A DNA stretch of 64,000 nt from Candidatus Bruticola sp. (GCA_051874735.1 JBJEGD010000026.1:166815-230814); one strand, 5' to 3'; positions 33,521 to 51,273 are shown, counted from the stretch's first letter. Made by a program: numbers and translations. Notes: generated by a model not told the origin, from the sequence alone.

Positions 33521-34972
33521 TTACTTTACTTCCTGTCCTTGATAATCGTATTTCATGGCGCCTTCGATATTGAGACGCGCTCCGCTGCCAACTTTTCCTT
33601 GAAGACTTTCCAGTTGATCCCCTCCCTTAGTGAGGCGGGTCATCAGCTCGTCGTTGCTCATGTTGGGATCCATAGCTAGAAGCAGACCGGCCGCGCCGGT
33701 AACATGGGGAGTGGCCATAGAAGTGCCGCTGTATACCGCATAACCTCCGCCAGGAACGGTAGATAGGATGTCTTTACCGGGAGCGGCAATATCAACATTC
33801 TTTTCTCCGTAACAAGAGAAACCGGCCAGTTGATCGTTGCGGTCTGTAGCTGCTACAGCCAAATTATTCGGCAGATTGTAGTCAGAAGGATAGTGAGGAT
33901 GAATGTCATTATTCGTGCCGCTGTTGCCGGCAGACATCATGTGCAGGGCTTCAGAAGAGTTGCGGAAAGCCTCTTCGATAGCAGGGTTAGCCGGGCCGCC
34001 TCCCCAAGAATTGGAGGTCAAGCGAGCACCCACAGAATTGGCGTAGTTAATACCGCGGATAATTGAAGCTGCATCAGCGCCGCCGTCGTCACTGAATATT
34101 TTAACGGGCAGTATTGAAGCTGACCAGTTGATGCCACTGATACCCTCGCCATTGTTGCCTACAGCACCAATCGTACCGGCTACGTGAGAACCGTGACCTT
34201 GGCGATCCATGACGTCGCCATTTTGCAGGCAGGCGTTCCACCCGTGATAGTCGTCGATAAAGCCATTGCCGTCGTCGTCAATACCGTTTCCGGGAATTTC
34301 CCCCGTGTTGGTATAAATATTGGCGGCTAGATCTGGGTGAGTAATATCGACTCCGGTATCAATAACTGCAATTAGCGGACCTTGGCCGTTGGGCATACCG
34401 GTAGTAATCTGCCAGGCTTCAGGAGCGTGAATATCGGCGCGAGCTGTACCATTTTTACTACCATCGTTATACATATCCCACTGTTGTTCGAATTTGGCAT
34501 CGTTGGGGACCTTGCCTTCAGCCAGCTGCTCTCTAGTGAATTCCTGACCTTTAACTACATCTTCAGCGTGATAAATAGTGTTAGGAACAGCAAATTCGAT
34601 GTTGGGATCTTGCTGCATTTGGGCTAAAGCTTCTTCTGTGGTCATGCCTTCCGGAAGCTGGAGTTGCATCATTTCGCCCATATCGGCAGCTTTAACGCGT
34701 CCGGGGATTTGGAAATTGTCTAAAACTTTAGCGCCGTATTTCTCGGCGACATTCTCTGTGTTGGCGCTGGCCAACAAGGAGCCTTTAGTTTTAATTATAA
34801 CTTGGCCGGGAACAAATTCTCCTAAGGAACTTTTTTCGGAGCCTAAGCTGACAGAATCGGAGCCTACTTGCGGATTGGTATTCTCAGATTTAGCTTCAGG
34901 CTGACCGGCAACCTGAGGAGTGTAAGTGCTCTGCATCTGGTTGATGCTGTTGGAGCCAATATTAGAGATCAT
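33521..34972 (-). CDS. Subtilisin-like serine protease (S8) with prodomain, no Sec signal
   Basis: Triad IAVIDTG / HGSHVAG / GTSMATP; oxyanion SAGN; prodomain FVPGQVIIK...FAVPN; GAGGAGG RBS. Confidence 0.95.
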   Translation of the reverse strand: MISNIGSNSINQMQSTYTPQVAGQPEAKSENTNPQVGSDSVSLGSEKSSLGEFVPGQVIIKTKGSLLASANTENVAEKYGAKVLDNFQIPGRVKAADMGEMMQLQLPEGMTTEEALAQMQQDPNIEFAVPNTIYHAEDVVKGQEFTREQLAEGKVPNDAKFEQQWDMYNDGSKNGTARADIHAPEAWQITTGMPNGQGPLIAVIDTGVDITHPDLAANIYTNTGEIPGNGIDDDGNGFIDDYHGWNACLQNGDVMDRQGHGSHVAGTIGAVGNNGEGISGINWSASILPVKIFSDDGGADAASIIRGINYANSVGARLTSNSWGGGPANPAIEEAFRNSSEALHMMSAGNSGTNNDIHPHYPSDYNLPNNLAVAATDRNDQLAGFSCYGEKNVDIAAPGKDILSTVPGGGYAVYSGTSMATPHVTGAAGLLLAMDPNMSNDELMTRLTKGGDQLESLQGKVGSGARLNIEGAMKYDYQGQEVK

Positions 34973-35142
34973 GCTGCCTCCTCAATAATTTTTTTCTGTG
35001 CACATTCGACTTTTAGCCTTTTTTATTCTCTTGAAGCTCGTTTGTGCCTTCCTGCTCAGTAAAGGCCTCAAGATAAAAAAGTCGCATATCTTGCTGTTTG
35101 ATGGCTATAGTCAGCAAATAATTATGTTGTTTACAGACAACC

Positions 35143-36642
35143 TTACTGCTGAGCGATATGATACTCGTATTCCATGGCTTTATTGACATTCAGGCGGCCG
35201 CCGGAAGAAACTACGTTTTGTAGTCCGTCAATCTTATCAGAACCTTCTAGAAGTCGAGTTTTGAGCTCATCGTTGCTCATGGTGGGATCCATAGCCAAAA
35301 GTAATCCGGCCGCACCGCTTACATGAGGAGTTGCCATAGAAGTTCCGCTCTTAGAGGCGTAACCTCCGCCTGGAACTGTGGAGTAAATGTCCTTGCCTGG
35401 AGCTGCTATATGGACTGATTCTTTGCCATAGCAGGAGAATTTGGCTAATTTATCGTTGCGATCGGTAGCTGCTACTGTAATTGAGTTATGTAAAGGATAA
35501 CTGCCTGGATAGTGCGGCACTTGATCGTTATTGTCAGCAGAGTTGCCCGCTGCCATAATGTGCAAGGCCTTAGAGTGGGCGAAGGCGTCGCGTATGGCCA
35601 AGTTGGCCTCTCCACCTCCCCAGGAGTTGGAAGTTATGCGAGCACCGTTGTTGGAAGCGTAATTAATGCCGCGTATAATGGCAGCTGCATTAGTGCGTCC
35701 GTTGTCGTCAAAAATTTTAACGGGCATAACAGTTGCCTGCCAATTGACGCCGACAACTCCTTGACCGTTATTACCTTCTGCCGCAATGGTGCCGGCGCAG
35801 TGGGTGCCGTGAGAGTGGACATCCATGGGATCGCCGTTGTCGCTAAAGGCGTTGTAGCCGTGGACGTCGTCAACTACACCGTTGCCGTCGTCGTCTATGC
35901 CGTTGCCGGGGATTTCGCCGGGATTAGTCCAAATATTATTAACTAAATCGGGATGGTTATAATCGACGCCGGTATCGATTACTGCAATAATTGGTCCTTG
36001 TCCGTTGGGAAGGCCAGTAGTTTTCTGCCAAGCTTGTGTCGCTCCGATATCGACGCCGGGAGTGCCGCCGTCCTGACCGTCGTTCTTTAACCCCCAAAGT
36101 TTTGAGTCAAGATCGTTAGGGACTTTACCTTCAGAGGTGGAGAGTTTAGCGCTAGTTGTTCCAGCTTCGGACGGTACCTCATCTTCTAAGGTATATATAG
36201 AGTTGGGGACGGCATATTCAATCTCAGGGTCTTCCTGCATAACGGCTAAGGCTTGAGCTGTAGTCATGCCTTCTGGTAGTTGCATATGGAGCATCTCACC
36301 CTGCATACCCTTGAAGATGCTGGCTTTGTTATTAAACTTTTCTAGAACAACTGCACCGTATTTTTGGGCTATGTTGCTGGTACTCTGCATGAGAGTACCT
36401 TTTGTTTTGACAATAACTTGACCGGGTACGTGGGGCTCGAGATCCTGTTCTAATTGGGCCGCTTTAGTACTGGAAGCAGCTAAAGCTTTTTCCAGTTTAG
36501 TTTGAGGGCGAATGTCTACCTGATCGGCCTGTGAAGCCTGACAGTAAACGGTTTCCTCTTGGGGGGGCTGCGCTTTGGCTATAGTAGCAGTGCTGCCCGG
36601 CTGCAGATTGGATATGTAAGCAGAGCCAATACTGTTGATCAT
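35143..36642 (-). CDS. Subtilisin-like serine protease (S8), tandem paralogue, no Sec signal
   Basis: IAVIDTG / HGTHCAG / GTSMATP; AAGN; start set at MINSIGS (GGAGG RBS), matching the paralogue's MISNIGS. Confidence 0.95.
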   Translation of the reverse strand: MINSIGSAYISNLQPGSTATIAKAQPPQEETVYCQASQADQVDIRPQTKLEKALAASSTKAAQLEQDLEPHVPGQVIVKTKGTLMQSTSNIAQKYGAVVLEKFNNKASIFKGMQGEMLHMQLPEGMTTAQALAVMQEDPEIEYAVPNSIYTLEDEVPSEAGTTSAKLSTSEGKVPNDLDSKLWGLKNDGQDGGTPGVDIGATQAWQKTTGLPNGQGPIIAVIDTGVDYNHPDLVNNIWTNPGEIPGNGIDDDGNGVVDDVHGYNAFSDNGDPMDVHSHGTHCAGTIAAEGNNGQGVVGVNWQATVMPVKIFDDNGRTNAAAIIRGINYASNNGARITSNSWGGGEANLAIRDAFAHSKALHIMAAGNSADNNDQVPHYPGSYPLHNSITVAATDRNDKLAKFSCYGKESVHIAAPGKDIYSTVPGGGYASKSGTSMATPHVSGAAGLLLAMDPTMSNDELKTRLLEGSDKIDGLQNVVSSGGRLNVNKAMEYEYHIAQQ

Positions 36643-36767
36643 GGAACCTCCGTTGATACTGCAAATAGACTTTGCAGTGAACAAACAATTCTACATTCTT
36701 TAGTGTAGGCTAAAATCGTTTTCTACGTGTAATCATGAAGTTAACGTTTCGCCGTTATAGTTGGCGG

Positions 36768-39969: not shown

Positions 39970-41676
39970 TTATTTAAGAAAAAGCTTGGCAAAAGCCTTT
40001 GGACTTAAAGGCTCTCCAGTAGCTTCTTTGCACATTTCTTGCCAGTTGGTACGATTGCCGACGGAAAATACCTTTTCACGCAAATAATTGCCCGCTTTAG
40101 GTTCGTTGTAGAAAGAAGTGTCTAAAGGATTTTCCTTGCCAATGATGTTCTTAGCCATATAATTGTACAACTGCGATGCGAAAAGGTCGCCCATCATGTA
40201 GTTGTGATAGTAAACTGGAGCACCAACTATATGCATTTTAGCGCCGTAATCTTGGCCAGACATACTTATAGGCGGAGCTTGCAGCTGGTATTTAGCTTTC
40301 AAATCCCACCAAAGTTTATTCAGATCCTGATTGGGGTTGGCATACATTTCCTTCTCAAAGTGGAGCATAGTCTGAGTCCAGCGGCTGAAAATAAGGCGCT
40401 CGGAACGCAGCAGACGCCATGAAGCTTTTGAATAGTTGTCTAGCTCTTGGCCGCTGAGTCCAACAACATTATGCAGAAAATCTGGAGTGCGTGTCATTTC
40501 ACCCATAAACATAGCGAAACCTTCGGTGGTTAAAATGTGGGCTGGAGTTCGCAACAAATAAGGTTGGGCAGGATCAATATATTGATCGTAGAGGCCGTGT
40601 CCCAGTTCATGATTAATCGTATCCATCCAGGCGCCGTTGGGTTTTATGTTGCATAGCACGCGGATATCTTGTTCCCTGTCTATGCAAGTTTCGAAAGCAT
40701 GAGGACTTTTGCCGTTGCGTTCATAAAGATCGCTGCGGGATATAATTTTGCTGGGATCCATACCTAAACTAACATAGTATTTAGTGGACAGGGCGACTGG
40801 GTCTTTATCTTTATAAATATCGTCAAGATTTAGTCCGTTTTCTTTAAGTTCCGGCGCTTCTTGGAAGAAGAGATCGCCTAAATGCCAAGGACGAACGGCT
40901 TCATTATCTTTAAGACCGAAACGTTTGCGCTGGTAAGTGTCAATCTCTTGTTTTAGTTCGGTAAATGGAGCTTTAGTTAGTTTGTCCAGTTCGTCAAAAG
41001 TGTCAAACAGCTCTTTCTCATCGAACTCTTGCATATCAAGTTGCATGGCAAAGAAGTCGCGGTAGCCAAGCTGCCTAGCCATTTTATTGCGCAACTTAAC
41101 TAAATCTTTTAGAGGCGCAGAAACTTTTTGGCCTACTTCCATATAGCCCAACCAAGCTTGACGCACTTTATCATTATTATCGCTCTCTGCAATAATTTTG
41201 CGCACATCATTTTCCGTTAACTTCTGGCCGTTGACTAAGCTACGGTGAGTATTAAAAATTTTATCAACTTCAGCTTCTCTAGAAATTATTTTAGAAGTAA
41301 TGTCGGGATCAGCCTGATAAGGCAGATAAGCGTAGTATATTATGTCTAATTCTCTAGCTTCAGTAGGATCGGTAATCGCTTTAGATTGGCGCAGCTTTTG
41401 TAAGTCGGAGAAAGTTTTTTTATCTTGATGGAGAGCAGCCATGGCGTTATCTGCTTTTTCACGCCTGGCGTAAGCTTCATCTGAACCGGTGGTTGATGAC
41501 TCCCACCAGGCCTCGTTAGCTTCTTTTTCTAAAGGTTTTATTTGGCTTATATATCGATCGCGTATAGCGGCAAACTGCTGTTGGGGAGTGGGGGGCACCG
41601 CTTGCACCATCGTTCCACCTAAAATTGCTGCTCCTAGTACGGCAGCTGCAGCAGCAAAGCGAAATTTTTTAGACAT
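39970..41676 (-). CDS. Secreted gluzincin metallopeptidase (M2 ACE-like / M3-like)
   Basis: Sec signal ending MVQA|VP; HELGH plus downstream TEG third ligand; LNKLWWDLKAKYQ; KMHIVGAPVYYHNY. Confidence 0.85.
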   Translation of the reverse strand: MSKKFRFAAAAAVLGAAILGGTMVQAVPPTPQQQFAAIRDRYISQIKPLEKEANEAWWESSTTGSDEAYARREKADNAMAALHQDKKTFSDLQKLRQSKAITDPTEARELDIIYYAYLPYQADPDITSKIISREAEVDKIFNTHRSLVNGQKLTENDVRKIIAESDNNDKVRQAWLGYMEVGQKVSAPLKDLVKLRNKMARQLGYRDFFAMQLDMQEFDEKELFDTFDELDKLTKAPFTELKQEIDTYQRKRFGLKDNEAVRPWHLGDLFFQEAPELKENGLNLDDIYKDKDPVALSTKYYVSLGMDPSKIISRSDLYERNGKSPHAFETCIDREQDIRVLCNIKPNGAWMDTINHELGHGLYDQYIDPAQPYLLRTPAHILTTEGFAMFMGEMTRTPDFLHNVVGLSGQELDNYSKASWRLLRSERLIFSRWTQTMLHFEKEMYANPNQDLNKLWWDLKAKYQLQAPPISMSGQDYGAKMHIVGAPVYYHNYMMGDLFASQLYNYMAKNIIGKENPLDTSFYNEPKAGNYLREKVFSVGNRTNWQEMCKEATGEPLSPKAFAKLFLK

Positions 41677-42297
41677 ATATCTTCCTCTTTTATGACAATT
41701 TAGGCTAATAGTGTACCTTCAATTCTTTGGTAATTTTTCTTTTTAAGTCAATTCCTTTTTTTTTGCATTAAGGTCAACCTAAGCGACTTAACCGATAACA
41801 TGCAGTCAATCGCCTAATCACATAATAACCGTGTTTAATATGCAGTTTCCTGTTTGTTTTGCGCATATGATGTCAACAATATTTCTAAAATGATTTTTGT
41901 TTATAATTTTTTTAATAAAAATAAAAAAATGGTTACTTATTATGGTAGGCATGATTGGAGTGTTTAGTAGTCAAGTTCATTTGTATGTGTCCATGCAGAT
42001 TGAGCTTCAATAAATAAGCATAAAGTTTATCTTGTAACAATTGATTGCAAAAATCAGTGTTAAACAGTTTTTGATTACGATTTGATCGTTTATTAGGCTT
42101 CTTGTATGCCTAAAAACTTTGTTCGGCTTAGTAAATTCAGTTGCAAAATAGATTGTAACTGAAACGATTTGATAATTGACGCATATTTCTCTTTGTCGGC
42201 TATGCACGCTGGGTAGTTAATGAATTTGTTTACGGGTAGTTTGTCTGTATTTTCATAGAAAAGTATGAGTTTTTGTTGAGGAGGTAGCGTTGCTGTA

Positions 42298-44793
42298 ATG
42301 ATTAATATGTCTTTTGAGGTAGAAGCTGCCAGTTATGAGCCTCTTCCAGTGAAATATTTAAAGGTTGAGCGGTTACCTGAGCACGATGAAAGAGTGAAAT
42401 CGCTATCTAATTATCTGCCATCTAGCCAACAGCGTTTTTTTTTAGATAAGGTTTATCCATTTACTTATTATTTCCACTGTCAGCAGAAGCGTCACAGTGG
42501 AGAACCATATATTGTACATCCGATTTCTGTAGCCGAAATTTTGTCAAAATATCAGGTCGATTTGCCGACTTTGTCTGCTGCTCTTATGCACGACGTATAT
42601 GAAGATCATAGCGATGAAATTTCTTTAAGTGAGATACGATGTTACTTCGGCTGCAATATTTGTAATATGGAGGATGGATTAACTAAAATAGGTATTGCTG
42701 CTTCCAAAAATCGCCGAGAAACGGCTGCCCTGAGAGAACAACTTCCCAAAGATCGTATAGATTCTATCGCCAATCAAAATATATACAATTCGATTTCCAA
42801 GCTTGGGGGGCAGCAAGAAGGGAGCTATTCCCAAACTTCTCCCGAAGAAGCGGCAGCTAGAGCAAAGCGTATAAAAATTGCCAACAAAAATGCTTCTTTA
42901 GCTAAATTACTTCTGGGGATAGCTTCAGACCCACGCGTTATTTTGATTAAGCTGGCTGATAGACTCGATAATATGCGTACTTTGGACAGCTTGAGACCTG
43001 ACAAACAGCAGAGAATAGCCAGAGAAACTTTAGAGTTCTTCTGTCCCATAGCCGATCGTTTCGGAGTTTGGGAAATAAAAAAAGAATTGGAAGATTTGTG
43101 TTTTCGTTATCTTTACAAAAATATATACAATAATTTCAAAAAACAGGCAGAATTAGTTCGGGCCAAGAGACGAGGCAGTCTTGAAAAGACTGCTGAAAGA
43201 ATTAGAAATCTACTAAACAGCAAATCTGTTGCTGCTGAAGTCCATATTAAAGACAGTAGTTTATATACCGTTTTCAGGCGGATGGAAAACCATGGACAAA
43301 CTTCCATCGATGATGTTATAGGCTTGAGTTCTATTGTCATAGTTGCCGATAGCGAATCTTCCTGTTATACCGTAGAAGGACTTATTAAGAGTAATCTTTC
43401 TTTCTGTGGCAGCAGTTTCTATAAAGATTACATATCTTTGCCAAAGGCCAATAAATATAAGGCTATTCACATGGCTGTTTGGTCTGAAAGGCATATTACT
43501 AAAATACGTATATTCTCAGCTCAAGATCTTGAAATAAACAATATAGGCGTTTTTTCCGAGTTTAAAGGGTTGCCTTCAAGTTTGGAAGATAGCGATGTCA
43601 GCCGAATTATCAGTAAAAAATGGGCTACTTGGATTCAATCTTTGAGAGCTTTGCACGACGTCGCCGCTGAAAATACCGATTTTCTTGATTGGGCTATGAG
43701 CGGTACGCTGACCCACTCAATTACTTGTTTTACCTCCTGCGGTGACATGGTTAACCTGCCTATAGGGGCGACTCCGCTCGACTTCGCTTTTGCTCTTAAT
43801 GTAGATTTGGGATTAAAGTGTGAAGGTGCGCTGGTAAACGATCAATCAGTATCTTGTTTAGATTATAAACTTAAGGATAACGATTTTGTCAAAATTATCA
43901 GTTCTGATTCGGTGATTATACAACGCAGTTGGTTCGATTGTTGTTGCACTCCGGAAGCTCGTTCTGCTCTTAGTACCTGGTATAAAAATAATTACAGCGC
44001 TGAGTCCAATCGTGCCTACGGGCAAAAATTGCTAACATCTGTTTTGATTAAAGCTAATCTTCCCGGTATGCAAAACAACGAAGAGTTTTTGAAACAATTA
44101 GCTCAAAAATGCACCTGTCCTTCCGTGCAGGAAATGTTGGAAATGATTGGCACTCGCCGCATTAGTCTAAAATTCGTTCGTGAACAGTTAAACGACTGTT
44201 TAAGTACTTATCGAAATGGCCGCGAAGACTGCGATCGGATGACAGAAAATAGCGATATCTCAGCTCTGGTGCACATACGTCGCTTTGATCGTTTCAAAGT
44301 TTGTGCTTGCAGTGAGTGTCTGCCTTTAATAGGCGACGATATTTTCGTTATGGGAGCGGCTCCTGGACAGCTGATTTTACATCGACGTGGCTGCGCGGAT
44401 GCTGAAAAAAAATTACTCCTAGCTACTCAGAGTAGCGCTAGGCAAGATGCTACTCTTCCTGTTAAGAGCACCGAATTAAGGCGCGATCTGGAGCCGCTAG
44501 TCATTCATGAAAATGCCTCTTGGTTGGAAGACAGTCATTCCAATGTGTCTGATCTCGGGCTGAGAGCTGAATTGACTGTAAAATCGGTCTACAGTTTTTC
44601 TTTAGCAGCAGAAATCATTGTGTGCTGTAACGATCGCGATGAAAAAATTTATAACCTAAAATTAGACAATAATTTTGTTGGAGGAGCTTCTAGTTTGAGT
44701 ATGCTTGTTGGAGTATCCAGCCTCAGCGAATTGGAAAGTCTGATTTCGTGTATAAAAAAGATAGATGGTGTCGTTGAAGTAACGCGTATTTAA
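42298..44793 (+). CDS. Long RelA/SpoT homologue 1: intact HD hydrolase, degenerate synthetase, TGS-ZFD-ACT
   Basis: RHSGEPYIVHP, HDVYED, KLADRLDNMRTL; synthetase motifs altered (GLSSIVI, YKAIHM, TKIRIFS); LPIGATPLDFAF TGS. Confidence 0.9.
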   Translation: MINMSFEVEAASYEPLPVKYLKVERLPEHDERVKSLSNYLPSSQQRFFLDKVYPFTYYFHCQQKRHSGEPYIVHPISVAEILSKYQVDLPTLSAALMHDVYEDHSDEISLSEIRCYFGCNICNMEDGLTKIGIAASKNRRETAALREQLPKDRIDSIANQNIYNSISKLGGQQEGSYSQTSPEEAAARAKRIKIANKNASLAKLLLGIASDPRVILIKLADRLDNMRTLDSLRPDKQQRIARETLEFFCPIADRFGVWEIKKELEDLCFRYLYKNIYNNFKKQAELVRAKRRGSLEKTAERIRNLLNSKSVAAEVHIKDSSLYTVFRRMENHGQTSIDDVIGLSSIVIVADSESSCYTVEGLIKSNLSFCGSSFYKDYISLPKANKYKAIHMAVWSERHITKIRIFSAQDLEINNIGVFSEFKGLPSSLEDSDVSRIISKKWATWIQSLRALHDVAAENTDFLDWAMSGTLTHSITCFTSCGDMVNLPIGATPLDFAFALNVDLGLKCEGALVNDQSVSCLDYKLKDNDFVKIISSDSVIIQRSWFDCCCTPEARSALSTWYKNNYSAESNRAYGQKLLTSVLIKANLPGMQNNEEFLKQLAQKCTCPSVQEMLEMIGTRRISLKFVREQLNDCLSTYRNGREDCDRMTENSDISALVHIRRFDRFKVCACSECLPLIGDDIFVMGAAPGQLILHRRGCADAEKKLLLATQSSARQDATLPVKSTELRRDLEPLVIHENASWLEDSHSNVSDLGLRAELTVKSVYSFSLAAEIIVCCNDRDEKIYNLKLDNNFVGGASSLSMLVGVSSLSELESLISCIKKIDGVVEVTRI

Positions 44794-44877
44794 GCAGAAA
44801 GAATAGTCTTTTTTTATAGATATATCTCAACAACTAAATCATATATCAATTTACAAAAAGAAAGGTTAGCTAGTTCT

Positions 44878-47274
44878 ATGACTTATATTCCTGAGGGCTG
44901 CAATCCGCAGGCAAAGTTTGACAAGCAAGGTCCCAATTATCCTGAGTTTGAGGATAGTGTAAGAAAAAGCTCCGCTCACCTTTCGCCAGAATGTCGCGAT
45001 TTTATCGTTAATAAGGTTTATCCTTATGCTAATTATTGGCATCAGTTTCAAAAGCCGCGCATTAACGGTAAGCCGTATATCTCTCATCCTGTAGCTGTAG
45101 TCGGCATTCTAGCTCCCTATAAACTTGATGTTTCCAGTGTGGCGGCAGCCCTGCTTCACGACGTCCATGAAGATAACGAAAATGATGTAAGTCTAGATGA
45201 TATCAAGGAGCTATTTGGTACTGATATACGCAATATTGTCGATGGTTTGACAAAAATAGGCAAGGCCAGTGCTAGACAGCGTCGCGAAGCGGTGCGAGCA
45301 GCTGTATGTGAAGCTTCTGCCGGTTTACTGAGTTCGTTACAGGCTTCTTTCGGACTTAATTTGGGAATAGAGAATAATTTAGCCGTTCCTTTAACTCCCG
45401 CTCAAATCAGAGAAAGAGCTCGCCAAGCTAAACTAGATGATAAGGCAGCCAGTCTTACCAAGCTAGTTACAGAGATGGCCAGGGATATACGCATTATCAT
45501 TGTTAAGTTGGCAGACCGCCTGCATAATATGTATACTTTAGACGGGCTACGCCAAGATAAACAAATACGTATTGCTCAAGAGACTTTAAATTTTTTCGCT
45601 CCTTTAGCAACCCGTTTAGGTATGTGGCCTTTTAAGGTGGAGCTGGAAGACCTATGCTTCAAATATTTAGAACCTAGTCAGTATACTGAATTAAAAGAAA
45701 ATTTAGCTGCTGAAAGGAGTCGTCGCTCAGAATCTTTGGCGCAGACTTTAGAGTCAATACGCAAATCTTTAGTACAAGAAGGCATTTCGGCCAAGGCAGA
45801 GCTGCACACTAAATCACTTTATTCTGTGTTTGCTAAAATGCGACGTCAGCATAAAACTTTAGAGCAAATTTTCGATTTAGATCCTATATCTATAGTGGTT
45901 GATGATAAAAATACCTGTTATCAGGTACTGAGGGTCATTCATCAGCGTTTTGGATTTTTGCAGGGGAAATTCCGCGATTATATTGCTAATCCTAAAAGCA
46001 ATAATTATCAAGCTTTGCACACTACAATTTCGGCTGACGGCCGACTGCCTGTGGAAATTCAAATCTGCACGTATGATGAAGAAGCTGAGAATAACTTGGG
46101 AGTGCTCAATGTTTTTGTCTCGGGAAGGTACAGCGCTGAAGCTAATAGCGGTGAAGTTAACAAACTATTTCGTCCTTTTGCTCCTTGGTTAGCCTCTTTA
46201 AGCCATATAAAAGAAGGTTGTAAAGAAGATCAAGACTTTTTAGATGTTCTCTGTCAGGATGAGCTTACTGTTGGAGTAGTCTGCACTACTCCGGACGGTC
46301 GCAGCATTGAATTGCCGCAAGGAGCAACACCTTTAGACTTCGCCTTTAAAATTCATACTCAGTTGGGATTGTGTTGTACTGGAGCTATTATAAATGATAG
46401 GGAAGTATCTCTGACTGGTTATGAACTGCGTGATAACGATGTTGTGCAAATTCTGTCTTCTGATAAGGAGAATCCGTCCCGTAATTGGTACGCCCATTGT
46501 CGGACTAGGCAAGCGCGCTCAGTTATAAGTAAGTGGTTCTTTGTAAATCAGACGCCTGAGCCTAACCGCACTATAGGTTATAAAATGATTTGTGCGGAGC
46601 TGATTCGTCAGGGTGCCGCTGGAGCGCAGACTAATGCTGAAATTATGAAAGCTATGGTGAGTTCTCTCAATTTCAAGTCACTTGAAGAACTTTATATCGC
46701 TATAGGCAGCTTTCGTACTCCTATGTCAAATTTTTCTAAGTGCTTCAAAAATTACCGTGAGAATAATCCTCAGCAGTTTGACAATTTAGATTGCGATCCA
46801 ATGCGTTTGCGCGATATCTCTCTGTCAGTAAGGATTGCAGAGCAGCCTAAGGCTCGTTGCTTTGCCTGTAGACAGTGTACTCCTGTTTTTGGAGATTCTA
46901 TTAAGGCTGTGGGTGGCAAAAAGAATAAGGGATATGTCATTCATCGCGGCAGTTGTTCTTTGATCGCTGAAGCCGCTGGGGCCGGAAGGCGAATTTATGA
47001 AGCAGAGTGGATCAGTGGCATCGATCCTAAACTATTCATGCTGCGTGCCACCATTCAAATATGTGCTTTAGTGCGTCATGGATTGTCTAATTCCGTTATT
47101 AGTGTTTTTGACAGTAAAAATGTTCTAATATACAACTACAAGTTCACTAATGATTACGCTAAAAATGTGACCAGTATAAAAATAGAAGTAGGTGCTGCTT
47201 CTATAGAAGAGCTGGAAATGCTGATGGATGAGCTGCGGTCTGTGGACAGTGTAGTTACAGTTGAAAGAGCCTAA
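44878..47274 (+). CDS. Long RelA/SpoT homologue 2: intact HD hydrolase, partly degenerate synthetase, TGS-ZFD-ACT
   Basis: RINGKPYISHP, HDVHED, KLADRLHNMYTL; HTKSLYS, DLDPIS, YQALHT, EIQICT; LPQGATPLDFAFKIH. Confidence 0.9.
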   Translation: MTYIPEGCNPQAKFDKQGPNYPEFEDSVRKSSAHLSPECRDFIVNKVYPYANYWHQFQKPRINGKPYISHPVAVVGILAPYKLDVSSVAAALLHDVHEDNENDVSLDDIKELFGTDIRNIVDGLTKIGKASARQRREAVRAAVCEASAGLLSSLQASFGLNLGIENNLAVPLTPAQIRERARQAKLDDKAASLTKLVTEMARDIRIIIVKLADRLHNMYTLDGLRQDKQIRIAQETLNFFAPLATRLGMWPFKVELEDLCFKYLEPSQYTELKENLAAERSRRSESLAQTLESIRKSLVQEGISAKAELHTKSLYSVFAKMRRQHKTLEQIFDLDPISIVVDDKNTCYQVLRVIHQRFGFLQGKFRDYIANPKSNNYQALHTTISADGRLPVEIQICTYDEEAENNLGVLNVFVSGRYSAEANSGEVNKLFRPFAPWLASLSHIKEGCKEDQDFLDVLCQDELTVGVVCTTPDGRSIELPQGATPLDFAFKIHTQLGLCCTGAIINDREVSLTGYELRDNDVVQILSSDKENPSRNWYAHCRTRQARSVISKWFFVNQTPEPNRTIGYKMICAELIRQGAAGAQTNAEIMKAMVSSLNFKSLEELYIAIGSFRTPMSNFSKCFKNYRENNPQQFDNLDCDPMRLRDISLSVRIAEQPKARCFACRQCTPVFGDSIKAVGGKKNKGYVIHRGSCSLIAEAAGAGRRIYEAEWISGIDPKLFMLRATIQICALVRHGLSNSVISVFDSKNVLIYNYKFTNDYAKNVTSIKIEVGAASIEELEMLMDELRSVDSVVTVERA

Positions 47275-47308
47275 AAAATACAGCATTGTCATTTGAGGTT
47301 TATAAAAA

Positions 47309-49645
47309 ATGGGAGAAGAAAAGAAGTTATTGGAAAAAAAAGCTGAGGTTGCTTTAAATGGAAAAAAGATAGATTTAAATAAAGAGCTGCCTGCATTTAA
47401 GCAGCAGTTAGAAGACAAATATTGGTCGAAATTGGCTCAATGCGCTTCTTATCTTGATGAAGAACGGCTGAAAAAATTGAGAAAAGCTCTCGATTTAGCT
47501 TTTCGAGCCCATGATGGGCAGTTCCGATTTTCTAATGATCCTTATGTCGATCATCTTGTTGAAGTAACCAAAATTTTAGCTTCTTACCATTTGGATTCCA
47601 CTACTTTGTGTACTGGGATGTTGCACGATTTAATCGAGGAAGAAACTGGTGTTAGTCTTGACTATGTGACTGAGCAGTTTGGTAAAGAACTTAGTAATTT
47701 AATTAACGATGTCACCAATCTTACTAAGCGTTTTGCCAGCGAAACTGAAAATTTAGAAAATAAAGATCGACGCCAATCGAAAGAATTTACTCGCTTGGGA
47801 GGCAAAGAGGCTGCCGACGAAAATTTGCGCAAAATCTTTTTGGTCATTGCTCGTGATTTGCGTGCCATTTTAGTTAAATTTGCCGATCGCTTACACAATC
47901 TTCGTACTTTAGAATTTTGCAAAGTTGATTTGCAGAAAAAGATTGCGCAGGAAACTTTAGATATTTTCGCTCCGCTAGCTTCGCGTTTAGGGGTTTGGGA
48001 GTTTAAAGCTGAATTAGAAAATTTATCTTTTCGGTATGCACTACCGGAAGAGTATCTGGCACTCAATCGCGATTTAGAAGAAGTGCGCCCTGCTTTTGTC
48101 GCTGTCATGGACAAAATCGTAGCAACTTTAAAAGAAAATCTGCGAGAATTAAATGTAGAAAACGAGTTAGAGTATCGTTTTAAACATCTTTACAGTATTT
48201 ATCGTAAAAAGGTGCGTTCTCATAAAAGTTTATCCGAAATTTACGATCTAGCGGCCATACGCGTTTTAGTGCCTACAGTAGAAGATTGCTATATGATTTT
48301 CGGTTTAGTGCACTCTTTATGGTCTCCCATGCAAGGACGCATTAAAGATTATATAGCTCATCCTAAGCCTAATAATTACCGTTGCCTGCATACTACGGTT
48401 ATAGGACCTGATGATGTGCCAGTAGAGATCCAGATTCGTACTTTTGAAATGCATAAAGTTAACGAAGTTGGCGTGGCCGCTCACTGGGCTTACAAAGAAG
48501 GCAAAGTGAGCGCCGATAAGAGTCGGCGTGATATCTTCGCTGAATTGTATCCGTGGATTAGAGCTCTCTTTGATTGTAGTCATGAAGATGAAAGCGATGT
48601 CGGTGAACATGCCAAGTTTAGTGTACCTTCTAATGAAGTTTTTGCCTTCACTCCCTTAGGCGATGTTGTCAATTTGCCCATGGGAGCAACACCTATTGAT
48701 TTTGCTTACCGAGTACATAGCGAAGTAGGTAACCGCTGTGTGGGAGCCTTAGTCAATGGGCGTATAGTACCGCTTACTTATAAGTTATCTACTGGCGATC
48801 AAGTAGAGATAAAAACGGCCAAAAATGGTACTCCTTCGCGCGATTGGTTGCGTATTTGTACGAGTCATCAAGCTTTAAGTAAAATCCGCGGTTGGTTTAA
48901 ACGAGAGCGCCGGGAAGAAAATATCATCTGCGGACGGGAAGCGGTGAAGGCTGAACTGAAGCGCCTTCGTTTAGAAGACCTTCTCAACAATGAAGAAATT
49001 ATGCTCAAAGCTGCTCAACAGCTAAGCTTTGTCAGCGGTGATGACTTATTGGCCAGTATAGGTTATGGTGAAACTTCTGTTTTGCAAGCTGTCAGCCGTC
49101 TGCAGAATGCTCTGCCTAAAACTGAAGTTGCGCCCGAAATCCCTCTGCCGGAAAATTCGCAGGCTGCCGCTAAGCGTTCAGGATCTGGACGAGAAGTTAT
49201 TGTTGAAAATATTGATACCCTTTTAACTAAGATGGCCCGCTGCTGCATGCCCGTGCCCGGAGATGATATCATTGGATATATTACGGTCGGCAGTGGAGTC
49301 TCTGTACATAGGGCTGATTGCGTTAATTTCGCCCATCTGTCCAAAGTGCATCCTGAGCGCGTTGTTCAATGTGCCTGGAATACTTCTTCTGTGCAGGCTA
49401 GTAAAACTTACTGGGTTCATATTGTCATTGAAGCGTGGGATCGCTCTGGATTAGTTGGTGAAGTGTTGGCGTGTCTTAGCGATATACGGATAAGTGTAAA
49501 ATCTTGTCAGGCGCTTACAGTTGGCGATAAAGCCAAGATAAAGCTTTCTGTTGAAGTTACTGGCAACAAGCAGCTGGAAGAAGCCCTTAAAAGATTAGGG
49601 GGAGTAAAGAGTGTATTTTCGGCAGTTCGTTCTAAAAACAGATAA
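47309..49645 (+). CDS. relA: Long RelA/SpoT homologue 3 (Rel orthologue), canonical (p)ppGpp synthetase
   Basis: [63 protein letters not shown]; directly upstream of dtd as in the conserved rel-dtd pair. Confidence 0.92.
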
Positions 49646-49704
49646 ATTTCTACTGCACTGAAGAAGGGCAGGGTTGCTCTAGTTTCAACAGAAAGTATAG
49701 CAGT

Positions 49705-50157
49705 ATGCGTGCAGTTGTTCAAAGAGTCTTAGGCTCTAGCGTGGAAGTAGATAATCAGGTTGTTGGCCAAATAGGGCAGGGACTTTTAGTTTTAGTAGCT
49801 GTTCATTGTGATGATACTGAGAAAGAAGCTGACTGGCTAGCTCATAAAATAACTCATCTGCGTATCTTTTCCGATGAAAATGATAAGATGAATTTGAGCG
49901 TTTCCGATATCGGCGGGCAAGTATTAGTCGTTTCTCAGTTTACCCTTTACGGCGATTGTCGCAAAGGTTTGCGTCCTAGCTACAGTCATTCAGCGGCGCC
50001 TCAAGAAGCTTCGCGCCTCTATTCCTATTTCGTAGAAAAAATCAAATCTTGTGGTTTAGAAGTTCAGGAGGGAGTCTTTCAGGCTCACATGCTGGTTAGT
50101 TTAGTTAATGACGGTCCAGTTACCATTATAATCGATACCCCTAGCATAACTAAGTGA
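49705..50157 (+). CDS. dtd: D-aminoacyl-tRNA deacylase
   Basis: [27 protein letters not shown]. Confidence 0.97.
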
Positions 50158-50169
50158 GGTTAGTTTACC

Positions 50170-50562
50170 GTGGCTTATAAAGTTTTTGTAGTTGACGATT
50201 CCAAGTTTATGCGCATGATGCTGGGAGAAGTTATTACTTCTATGGGATGTGAAGTCATCGAAATAGACAGCGGGCGGCGCGCTGTAACCATGTATGAGCA
50301 TTATAAGCCTGATTTGGTGACTTTAGACATTCTGATGCCTGAACAGGATGGTATTGAAACGCTTAAGCAGCTTTTTGATACCGATCCTAACGCTAAGGTT
50401 GTTATGGTGACGGCATTGGGTATGGAAGATTACATTAAGCAGGCGATGGAGCTAGGGGCCTGTGGTTTTATTGTGAAGCCTTTTTCCGCTGAGCAAGTAG
50501 AAACAGTACTTTCGGAAGTCTTAGGCGATCCTTCTTTGCACATTTCGGCTGATGAATTTTAA
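50170..50562 (+). CDS. Single-domain CheY-like response regulator
   Basis: VVDDS, PDLVTLDILMP (phospho-Asp), MVTA, FIVKPF. Confidence 0.92.
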   Translation: MAYKVFVVDDSKFMRMMLGEVITSMGCEVIEIDSGRRAVTMYEHYKPDLVTLDILMPEQDGIETLKQLFDTDPNAKVVMVTALGMEDYIKQAMELGACGFIVKPFSAEQVETVLSEVLGDPSLHISADEF

Positions 50563-50592
50563 CAGTTCATTGGCAGGCTGGTAGCTCAAAGC

Positions 50593-51273
50593 TCAAATTA
50601 TAGGGGCGCTCAGTACCGCTATAACTCTGCCTTTGTGGCATTTCAATTGAGCTTGTTCGGCCGTTATTACATTAGAAAGTCCTCTAGTAGAAGAACGTTG
50701 CAGCAGACTGTGTTCAAGGGGCCATTTAGTTCCTGTTACGCTTATTTCTACTTTGCTGTCTAGGGCAATGAGCGAAAGAATCCACCCTTGGAAACCTCTC
50801 CAAGAGCGGTTTTTTTGTTGCAGTTGGCAAACTTGGCAGCCTGGCTCTACTAGAACAGTGTCTAGGCCTAATTCATCGGCTAATTGAAGTAAGCTGATAA
50901 CATTAAATAAACAATGATCTAAACGGCCCCCGAGGGCGGCGGCTATGACAGCTTGATAAAAACCTAATCTGTGAGCGGCGCGCAGGGCCAGTTCCAGATC
51001 GCTGTAATTTTTGTCACAAGGAAAAGTTAAGACTTGCTGACAACTTTTCTGCATGTCAGCTAGAACATTTTGAGGCAAAGAATCGAAATCGCCCAGCATT
51101 ATATCTGGATGCAGTCCGCTTTTCTGTAGATAGAGCGCTCCGCGGTCGGCAGCAATAATACAGTCGCCGATTCTATACAATTTATATAGCCAGTCTGGGG
51201 GGGGAGGGGAGCCGCCGCCTACAATAAAAGCCCGATTAAAAGCAGAAAAATGGCTACTTTCTAGAGTGTCCAT
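50593..51273 (-). CDS. thiN: Thiamine pyrophosphokinase
   Basis: IAADRG, GDFDS, KNYSDLELAL, ALGGRLDH, GTKWPL, GLSN. Confidence 0.92.
   Translation of the reverse strand: MDTLESSHFSAFNRAFIVGGGSPPPPDWLYKLYRIGDCIIAADRGALYLQKSGLHPDIMLGDFDSLPQNVLADMQKSCQQVLTFPCDKNYSDLELALRAAHRLGFYQAVIAAALGGRLDHCLFNVISLLQLADELGLDTVLVEPGCQVCQLQQKNRSWRGFQGWILSLIALDSKVEISVTGTKWPLEHSLLQRSSTRGLSNVITAEQAQLKCHKGRVIAVLSAPII

Follow-up and report, generated by a model that had tools for sequence, protein, structure and literature searches.

This article concerns three genes that stand head-to-tail in the genome of Candidatus Bruticola sp. They lie within a window of 64,000 nucleotides (GCA_051874735.1, JBJEGD010000026.1:166815-230814; the window is the whole stretch of DNA we analysed, and positions count from its first letter). 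Each encodes a long RelA/SpoT homologue (RSH), and we call them RSH1, RSH2 and RSH3 in the order in which they are read. Downstream comes dtd, the gene for D-aminoacyl-tRNA deacylase. RSH3 has canonical synthetase motifs and one changed hydrolase motif; RSH1 and RSH2 have intact hydrolase motifs and substituted synthetase-like domains. We think it probable, while keeping some doubt in hand, that an ancestral rel gene was duplicated in place and that its descendants divided the labour, RSH3 as synthetase and RSH1 and RSH2 as hydrolases.

An earlier note on this DNA had described three tandem RSHs of ~800 amino acids upstream of dtd, and that description stands: the open reading frames (ORFs) encode 831, 798 and 778 amino acids, Pfam finds HD_4, RelA_SpoT, TGS and ACT_4 in all three alike, which is the long-RSH architecture, and dtd is matched by PF02580. 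Every motif string quoted for the three proteins is present in the translations. The RelA_SpoT match falls from 137 bits in RSH3 to 88 in RSH2 and 35 in RSH1, and ACT_4 in RSH1 (25.2 bits) lies slightly below its 27-bit cut-off. The zinc-finger domain has no Pfam match of its own and is visible as a Cys/His pattern aligned to C612/C613...H...C of Escherichia coli RelA, its CC motif being a CxxC variant in RSH1 and RSH2. The TGS His aligned to H432 of E. coli RelA, which we take to be a tRNA-contact residue, is kept in RSH2 and RSH3 and replaced in five of the six RSH1 rows shown for the studied genome's own genus (g1). Scoring against subfamily profiles, which the earlier note had proposed, gave a divided answer. 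The NCBIfam RelA/SpoT model TIGR00691 (cut-off 499.2 bits) recognises RSH3 (636.8) and RSH2 (514.8), with RSH1 (407.9) below the line. All three fall short of the SpoT equivalog NF008303 (cut-off 947; 299.8, 358.5 and 494.7 bits for RSH1, RSH2 and RSH3) and of the RelA equivalog NF008124 (cut-off 728; 197.9, 289.5 and 494.5 bits).

It is in the synthetase active sites that the copies part company most visibly. The motif names we use for them (RxKxxxS, DxxxxR, YxxxH, ExQxR, AAHW) and the catalytic roles that go with the names are in part what we take to be standard. RSH3 is the genome's only canonical synthetase, reading RxKxxxS, YDLxAxR, YRCLHT, EIQIRT and AAHW; the motifs are canonical in every Rel/RSH3 row that covers the column, and all paralogues have substituted residues. 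RSH1 reads HIKDSS, IGLSSIV, YKAIHM and TKIRIFS. Its RxK is lost; among 12 orthologues, two still have the Asp aligned with that of YDLxAxR and one still has the EIQIRT Glu. RSH2 is a subtler case, with LHTK, FDLDPIS, EIQICT and, in place of AAHW, LNVF. All its rows have the Lys of RxK; 8 of 12 have the Arg as well, that position being His in the studied copy and in genome G008 and Gln in genus g4. Also intact in RSH2 are YQALHT, the Glu-x-Gln of EIQICT and the YDL-motif Asp (FDLDPIS). Replaced in all 12 orthologues with the column are the Arg of DxxxxR (by Ser, Leu or Met), the Arg of QIRT (by Cys) and AAHW (by LNVF). Two metagenomic proteins, P0004 and P0007, stand in between, with RxKHLYSI still present and AAHW gone together with the Arg of both DxxxxR and QIRT. 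Passages of PMC9974481 describe the equivalents of RelTt R249, D272, R277, Y329 and Q347 as critical and as changed in the hydrolase-only SpoT of Acinetobacter baumannii; the positions substituted in the paralogues include these, and RSH1 changes the first three in most orthologues.

The hydrolase motifs tell the complementary story. Six are recognised, HD1 to HD6 (Arg; His; His-Asp; Glu-Asp; Asp-Arg/Lys; Asn, as set out in part of PMC9293644). RSH1 reads RHSGEPYIVHP, HDVYED and KLADRLDN, and RSH2 reads RINGKPYISHP, HDVHED and KLADRLHN. All six motifs are intact in 12/12 RSH1 orthologues, in 12/12 RSH2 orthologues with the column and in the one extra copy available from a third genus, g2 (1/1). 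The [Hs] pattern, hydrolase intact and synthetase substituted, is thus clear in RSH1 and partial in RSH2. RSH3 reads HDLIEE and KFADRLHN: its HD4 is Glu-Glu and the other five motifs are intact, one short of the six that mark Rel[HS]. Across relatives, every Rel from a multi-copy genome has EE at HD4 (14/14), and every single-copy Rel with the column has ED (14/14). In the Rel of the same 14 multi-copy genomes the His-Pro after HD2 has become His-Leu or His-Val; it is His-Pro in the 14 single-copy Rel. Among 143 other, unrelated long-RSH representatives HD4 is ED in 135 and EE in none. (We rely on this dipeptide count alone; sorting the 143 into HS, Hs and hS by regular expression was discarded as too crude, many of its 'non-HS' calls being conservative variants such as QIKT or QIRS.) The RSH3 hydrolase is probably weakened.

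Conservation, distribution and descent

Selection was measured as omega, the ratio of nonsynonymous to synonymous change (dN/dS), by the Nei-Gojobori method. We computed 36 genome pairs per gene, most with saturated synonymous divergence (dS), and quote the six pairs among G001, G003, G004 and G009, for which dS is 0.34-1.52. Whole-gene omega is 0.045-0.069 for RSH1, 0.012-0.018 for RSH2 and 0.014-0.022 for RSH3. All three are under strong purifying selection and none is a decaying gene or pseudogene; RSH1 is the fastest-evolving copy. The earlier note had named a dN/dS near 1 as a sign against its proposal, and the values lie far from it, at 0.012-0.069 throughout. It had also called the RSH2 synthetase 'eroding', and here it was wrong. 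Domain by domain (four pairs), omega for the synthetase or synthetase-like domain is 0-0.015 in RSH2, 0-0.019 in RSH3 and 0.036-0.115 in RSH1, and the altered RSH2 motifs are the same in 12/12 orthologues with the column: the domain is fixed, not eroding. In RSH1 omega is 0.083-0.236 for the zinc-finger segment (the fourth pair being saturated) and 0.077-0.324 for the ACT segment. Between genera, RSH2 is 81% identical in the motif-bearing half of the hydrolase and 64% in the synthetase-like domain; RSH3 is 51% identical in the hydrolase half and 72% in the synthetase; single-copy Rel lies at 64-65% and 69-71%. The deep conservation asymmetry is complementary between RSH2 and RSH3.

All three copies are also marked by an insertion between the DGxTK motif and HD5. 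In RSH1 and RSH2 it lengthens the protein by about 45-50 residues compared with single-copy Rel, which has none. In RSH1 it is variable (18-38% identity among orthologues), in RSH2 it is nearly frozen (omega 0-0.005), the genus-g2 copy, P0004 and P0007 have shorter versions at the same site, and RSH3 of the multi-copy genera has a variable Lys/Glu-rich one. Shared by all copies, the insertion may be a derived trait that supports duplication within the multi-copy subgroup. An AlphaFold2 model of RSH2 (mean predicted local distance difference test score, pLDDT, 86.4; predicted template-modelling score, pTM, 0.62) draws it with low confidence as a long helical hairpin, helices 129-158 and 174-202, with block pLDDT 47-57 over 131-170. 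Passages of PMC9974481 describe an alpha6/alpha7 element of SpoT that is held in a hydrolysis-competent position, and we infer from the alignment that the RSH1 and RSH2 insertion lies in this element. A fold search with the model returned RelA, SpoT and Rel structures, the chains of Protein Data Bank entry 7QPR at E about 5e-32. Whole-protein comparison gave template-modelling (TM) scores of 0.36-0.47 (0.36-0.42 against 7QPR), values that do not discriminate a compact SpoT from the extended ribosome-bound state.

The array recurs in relatives, where the earlier note wished to see synteny checked. The same three genes in the same order occur in nine other species of genus g1 and in two species of genus g4, with the array split across contig ends in two assemblies. 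An assembly artefact as the origin of the array is ruled out by its recurrence in independent assemblies. Genus g2 (two species) has a two-gene form, a divergent copy and then Rel, and a single Rel is present in the family's other genera and in two sister families, whose genomes are 4-9 Mb in size. Of 91 phylum members sampled (E <= 1e-40), 14 carry several copies and belong without exception to these three genera, 75 carry one copy and 2 carry none, the last two being 72% and 67% complete. Adjacency to dtd marks the ancestral position of Rel. That gene follows Rel/RSH3 in 30/30 relatives fetched, and in every multi-copy genome where the contig allows the extra copies stand directly upstream of the Rel-dtd pair on the same strand. 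RSH1 and RSH2 are 35% identical to one another and each about 30% to RSH3; the single-copy Rel proteins find their best match in RSH3 (46-52% identity, compared with 28-34% to RSH1 and RSH2). By best match, clade and position upstream of dtd, RSH3 is the orthologue of the lineage's ancestral Rel.

Our main maximum-likelihood (ML) tree had 66 rows: 36 full-length proteins from 19 of 31 genomes, the proteins P0004, P0007 and P0008, 25 long-RSH outgroups, and E. coli RelA and SpoT. Left out were the near-duplicates G003, G004, G007 and G009, fragments shorter than 590 amino acids, and G013, G023, G025-G027, G029 and G030. In three ML trees a single clade unites all copies with the order's Rel, with support of 100 in the Shimodaira-Hasegawa-like approximate likelihood-ratio test (SH-aLRT), and E. 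coli SpoT lies outside it. The clade splits into Rel/RSH3 (19 rows, SH-aLRT 99) and the paralogues (20 rows, 100), the latter on a long stem of 0.73-0.80 changes per column across trees (0.73 in the main tree). RSH1 and RSH2 are sisters (SH-aLRT 99-100), with earlier branches leading to the genus-g2 copy, P0007 and P0004. Two 47-row trees, with and without the synthetase columns, gave the same picture. Beyond the family, the nearest proteins among 1.84 billion representatives searched are ordinary long RSHs at 31-40% identity. For P0004, no relative above 40% identity was found in 401 genomes of the phylum and none above 37% in a metagenome scan. P0008 (792 amino acids) is 75% identical to the RSH1 orthologue of G015.

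Some irregular genes deserve a record. The genus-g4 RSH1 orthologues are short, 661 amino acids in G012 (L035:2132-4117) and 655 in G015 (L038:2921-4888), and have no zinc-finger/ACT end; a truncation, a frameshift or a fault in assembly may lie behind this. The Rel gene of G013 (L040, G013:C28) comes as two ORFs, and at HD5 there are an X and residues out of frame, probably through a masked base or an assembly error.

In the studied genome, a 2.47-Mb assembly of 42 contigs that is 92% complete, RelA_SpoT and HD_4 match nothing but RSH1, RSH2 and RSH3. Because the profile search (RelA_SpoT and HD_4) found no small alarmone synthetase or hydrolase in this 92%-complete assembly, the array appears to be the genome's whole alarmone metabolism. 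Short frames with an HD domain only (about 190-306 amino acids) occur in the single-Rel genomes G011, G013, G017-G021, G024, G026, G028 and G029, most of them 4-9 Mb in size. They are candidate small alarmone hydrolases, of which the studied genome has none, and in reduced genomes the long hydrolase paralogues may fill their role.

Weighing the alternatives

The history we favour would begin with the ancestral rel upstream of dtd being duplicated in place in a gut-associated Xenobia/UBP9 lineage. One extra copy would have come first, as in the two-gene array still present in one genus, and would then have duplicated again to give RSH1 and RSH2. RSH3 would have stayed the sole (p)ppGpp synthetase, probably with its ribosome- and tRNA-sensing C-terminal half kept; its hydrolase, in which Glu has become fixed in place of the Asp of the catalytic Glu-Asp pair, is probably weakened. 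RSH1 and RSH2 would be Mn-dependent (p)ppGpp hydrolases whose synthetase-like domains make no alarmone and play a structural or allosteric part, like that of Acinetobacter SpoT. The three genes would be co-transcribed, and their products may answer to different signals. We place the origin locally because of the strict in-situ tandem arrangement, the narrow distribution and the lack of any closer relative among the 1.84 billion representatives. In-situ duplication with complementary specialisation is likely.

Several results weigh against this reading, and they should be told together. In the ML trees the paralogues branch as sister group to the Rel of the order as a whole; they do not nest inside it next to the Rel of the multi-copy genera. 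It may be that the duplication dates further back and the extra copy was lost twice, or that the long stem misplaces the paralogues; an approximately unbiased (AU) test does not reject the nested placement (log-likelihood difference, delta lnL, 8.1; p 0.352). Nor does it reject a tree in which the paralogues join E. coli SpoT and the neighbour of that SpoT (delta lnL 20.9, p 0.16), so that sequence phylogeny by itself leaves the origin unsettled. The earlier note's local duplication thus has tandem synteny and a fully supported clade on its side and this AU result against it. RSH3, for its part, has a constrained hydrolase core (omega 0-0.03), and it may still hydrolyse (p)ppGpp because five of six motifs are unchanged, the sixth is a conservative Asp-to-Glu and the core is under that constraint. 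The ED/EE pattern probably records a single evolutionary event, the 28 genomes being kin, so the correlation is suggestive and not statistical. Finally, RSH2 may have residual or altered synthetase catalysis. Such catalysis is thinkable because the Asp, the Glu-x-Gln, the Tyr and, in 8/12, the Arg-x-Lys are kept, more than Acinetobacter SpoT has held on to. The complementary specialisation that the earlier note proposed accordingly keeps the motif states and the 14/14 against 14/14 contrast in its favour, with just the one conservative hydrolase change in RSH3 to set against them; RSH3 as a 'synthetase-biased' enzyme is a suggestion that the motifs make.

Might RSH3 then be a fully bifunctional Rel still, with RSH1 and RSH2 as extra hydrolases in the role of the small ones and no true split at all? 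The five intact motifs (HD1, HD2, HD3, HD5 and HD6), the mildness of the HD4 change, the constrained core and the HD-only frames of the single-Rel, larger-genome relatives, absent from the array genome, all fit that idea. Against it, the Glu-Glu pair is fixed in every multi-copy Rel and absent both from the single-copy relatives and from the 143 other representatives, the His-Pro after HD2 has changed in the same 14 proteins, and the motif-bearing hydrolase half of RSH3 has diverged relatively more than its synthetase since the duplication. We regard a still-bifunctional RSH3 as unlikely, though it is an idea to be taken seriously.

Another possibility attaches to RSH2 and perhaps RSH1. Here the synthetase-like pocket would be an allosteric nucleotide sensor or another kind of transferase, or the hydrolase would act on (p)ppApp or pGpp. 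The RSH2 domain is as constrained as the active one of RSH3 and keeps its Asp, Glu-x-Gln and Tyr/His positions, and the 58-residue insertion in the hydrolase domain has an omega of about 0. Yet 12 of 12 orthologues have replaced the Arg in both DxxxxR and QIRT, along with the AAHW helix motif. A regulatory, non-catalytic pseudo-synthetase of the kind documented for Acinetobacter SpoT (in passages of PMC9974481) would explain the constraint equally well, and we find this possibility doubtful. Allied to it is a more elaborate picture, a speculation we would not lean on: a three-part controller in which RSH3 is a RelA-like, synthetase-only sensor and RSH1 and RSH2 are differently gated hydrolases, RSH1, its tRNA-contact TGS histidine lost, following another cue. 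As part of that joint picture, the conserved RSH2 pocket and the invariant helical insertion beside the hydrolase site would form a sensing switch for a nucleotide or a partner and not a dead relic.

Horizontal gain of RSH1 and RSH2 from a SpoT-like or other long-RSH subfamily, landing beside rel, is highly improbable: the AU result and the long stem leave it some room, but the ML trees group the paralogues with the order's Rel, they stand head-to-tail upstream of Rel-dtd in all multi-copy genomes, their SpoT and RelA equivalog scores are far under the cut-offs, and the nearest outside proteins are ordinary long RSHs.

The locus and its surroundings

In the window the three RSH genes are separated by gaps of 84 nt (RSH1 to RSH2) and 34 nt (RSH2 to RSH3), with 59 nt between RSH3 and dtd; on the other side, by the ORF map and Pfam matches, 620 bp divide RSH1 from a divergent M2/M3-like peptidase gene. 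The features are collected in Table 1.

Table 1. Features of the RSH array and its flanks (coordinates in the window)
Feature	Coordinates	Strand	Basis or remark
Intergenic region, presumed promoter of the array	41677..42297	.	620 bp
RSH1 gene	42298..44793	+	831-aa ORF; long RSH, hydrolase motifs intact, synthetase-like domain degenerate
RSH1 insertion, DGxTK motif to HD5 helix loop	42685..42867	+	alignment, translation
RSH1 pseudo-synthetase domain	43198..43587	+	RelA_SpoT 35 bits; motif substitutions
RSH2 gene	44878..47274	+	798-aa ORF; long RSH, hydrolase motifs intact, synthetase-like domain altered but conserved
RSH2 insertion, same site as that of RSH1	45250..45423	+	alignment; 58 residues
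RSH2 pseudo-synthetase domain	45754..46152	+	altered motifs; omega 0-0.015
RSH3 gene	47309..49645	+	778-aa ORF; orthologue of the order's single-copy Rel
RSH3 HD3/HD4 motif HDLIEE, Asp to Glu in the Glu-Asp pair	47624..47641	+	translation and alignment
RSH3 Lys/Glu-rich variable insertion, same site	47714-47824	+	alignment
RSH3 synthetase domain	48125..48523	+	canonical motifs; omega 0-0.019
dtd (D-aminoacyl-tRNA deacylase)	49705..50157	+	150 aa; Tyr_Deacylase PF02580, 204 bits

Signals in the DNA itself did not rise above chance. An Rfam scan of 41500-50700 gave a sole weak match inside RSH1 (E 0.37, chance level) and none in 41677-42297. Promoter-like sites were not enriched (20 found, shuffle mean 19.7), and terminator-like sites were no more frequent than in shuffles, with none in the three short gaps between genes.

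Directly after dtd comes a stand-alone response-regulator receiver gene (PF00072, 50170-50562), whose position is kept in most relatives of the family. Further away, two adjacent paralogous ORFs on the - strand (33521-36684; 483 and 513 amino acids) encode subtilisin-like proteases; by translation, their polar N-termini are alike and do not resemble classical signal peptides. As to the host, NCBI places Ca. Bruticola in the class Xenobia of the Vulcanimicrobiota (Eremiobacterota). We regard it as a gut-associated Xenobia/UBP9 bacterium; the taxon labels of its relatives conflict (Bruticola, UBP9, Riflebacteria).

Known divisions of labour and what the array adds

One known division of this kind is the RelA/SpoT pair of Beta- and Gammaproteobacteria, which arose, as passages of PMC3153485 recount, when Rel was duplicated and the copies became biased toward synthesis or hydrolysis, each keeping the full domain set, disused domain included. 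In this the pair resembles our array. It differs in belonging to a separate phylum and event, in being two copies and not three, and in its genes being unlinked, whereas here they are adjacent. E. coli RelA has lost its HD motif outright, compared with an Asp-to-Glu change alone in RSH3, and E. coli SpoT keeps a working synthetase. The earlier note took the split to be a Beta/Gamma speciality, which is incomplete: RshA-D, Moraxellaceae SpoT and plant RSH1/CRSH are known (parts of PMC3153485, PMC9974481 and PMC5633626).

Parts of PMC3153485 trace the split into RelA[hS] and SpoT[HS] and its completion to SpoT[Hs] in Moraxellaceae. According to passages of PMC9974481, SpoT of A. baumannii (PDB 7QPR) is experimentally hydrolase-only and its pseudo-synthetase is a regulatory domain; like RSH1 and RSH2 it is a full-length long RSH that joins an active-looking hydrolase to a substituted pseudo-synthetase that has been kept. 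Of the residues lost in A. baumannii SpoT, RSH2 retains the Tyr, the Asp and the EIQ Gln. RSH1 and RSH2 differ from that SpoT further in their extra insertion of about 45-50 residues, their CxxC zinc finger and in being two paralogues, not one; the global folds are not comparable.

RshA-D, lineage-specific second copies of Rel, are, as far as passages of PMC3153485 describe them, also divergent extra long RSHs derived from Rel within one lineage, the hydrolase of RshB being strongly diverged. They belong to Actinobacteria, Bacteroidetes, Bacilli and Deltaproteobacteria and are written [HS]; our comparison is with their description and not within our trees. A classification of RSHs into 13 subfamilies also exists (parts of PMC7229694). 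In plants, sections of PMC5633626 describe a hydrolase-only RSH1 (by synthetase substitution), a synthetase-only CRSH (with a degraded HD domain) and an RSH2/3 with both activities. Plants and the array alike thus have three or more classes of long RSH in one compartment with partitioned activities. The plant genes, however, are eukaryotic, nuclear and unlinked, and CRSH has EF hands for TGS/ACT; in the array all three proteins keep TGS, zinc finger and ACT. In our literature search no publication connected RSH genes with Riflebacteria or Xenobia, though supplementary tables (for instance those of PMC7229694) may list related genomes; none treated Riflebacteria together with ppGpp, and the one in which Xenobia appears beside stringent-response terms is silent on Xenobia RSH genes in the passages shown.

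The locus is not a new kind of system, its division of labour being known from E. coli, Acinetobacter and plants. It is an independent case of the splitting of Rel, set apart by its tandem layout, its two hydrolase-type paralogues, its conserved insertion and the minimal motif change in Rel. Duplication of Rel followed by partition of synthesis and hydrolysis is textbook subfunctionalisation with few independent examples (RelA/SpoT, Moraxellaceae SpoT, plant RSHs), and the array adds one in an uncultured, genome-reduced gut lineage. If the three-part controller were true, it would be a convergent split within one operon, more elaborate than RelA/SpoT. What this family preserves is the intermediate stages: genomes with one, two and three copies, paralogues with partly kept synthetases (P0004, P0007), and a Rel with a lone Asp-to-Glu. 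With these in hand, one could ask in what order substitutions accrue when a bifunctional Rel splits, and whether a retained pseudo-synthetase is always regulatory.

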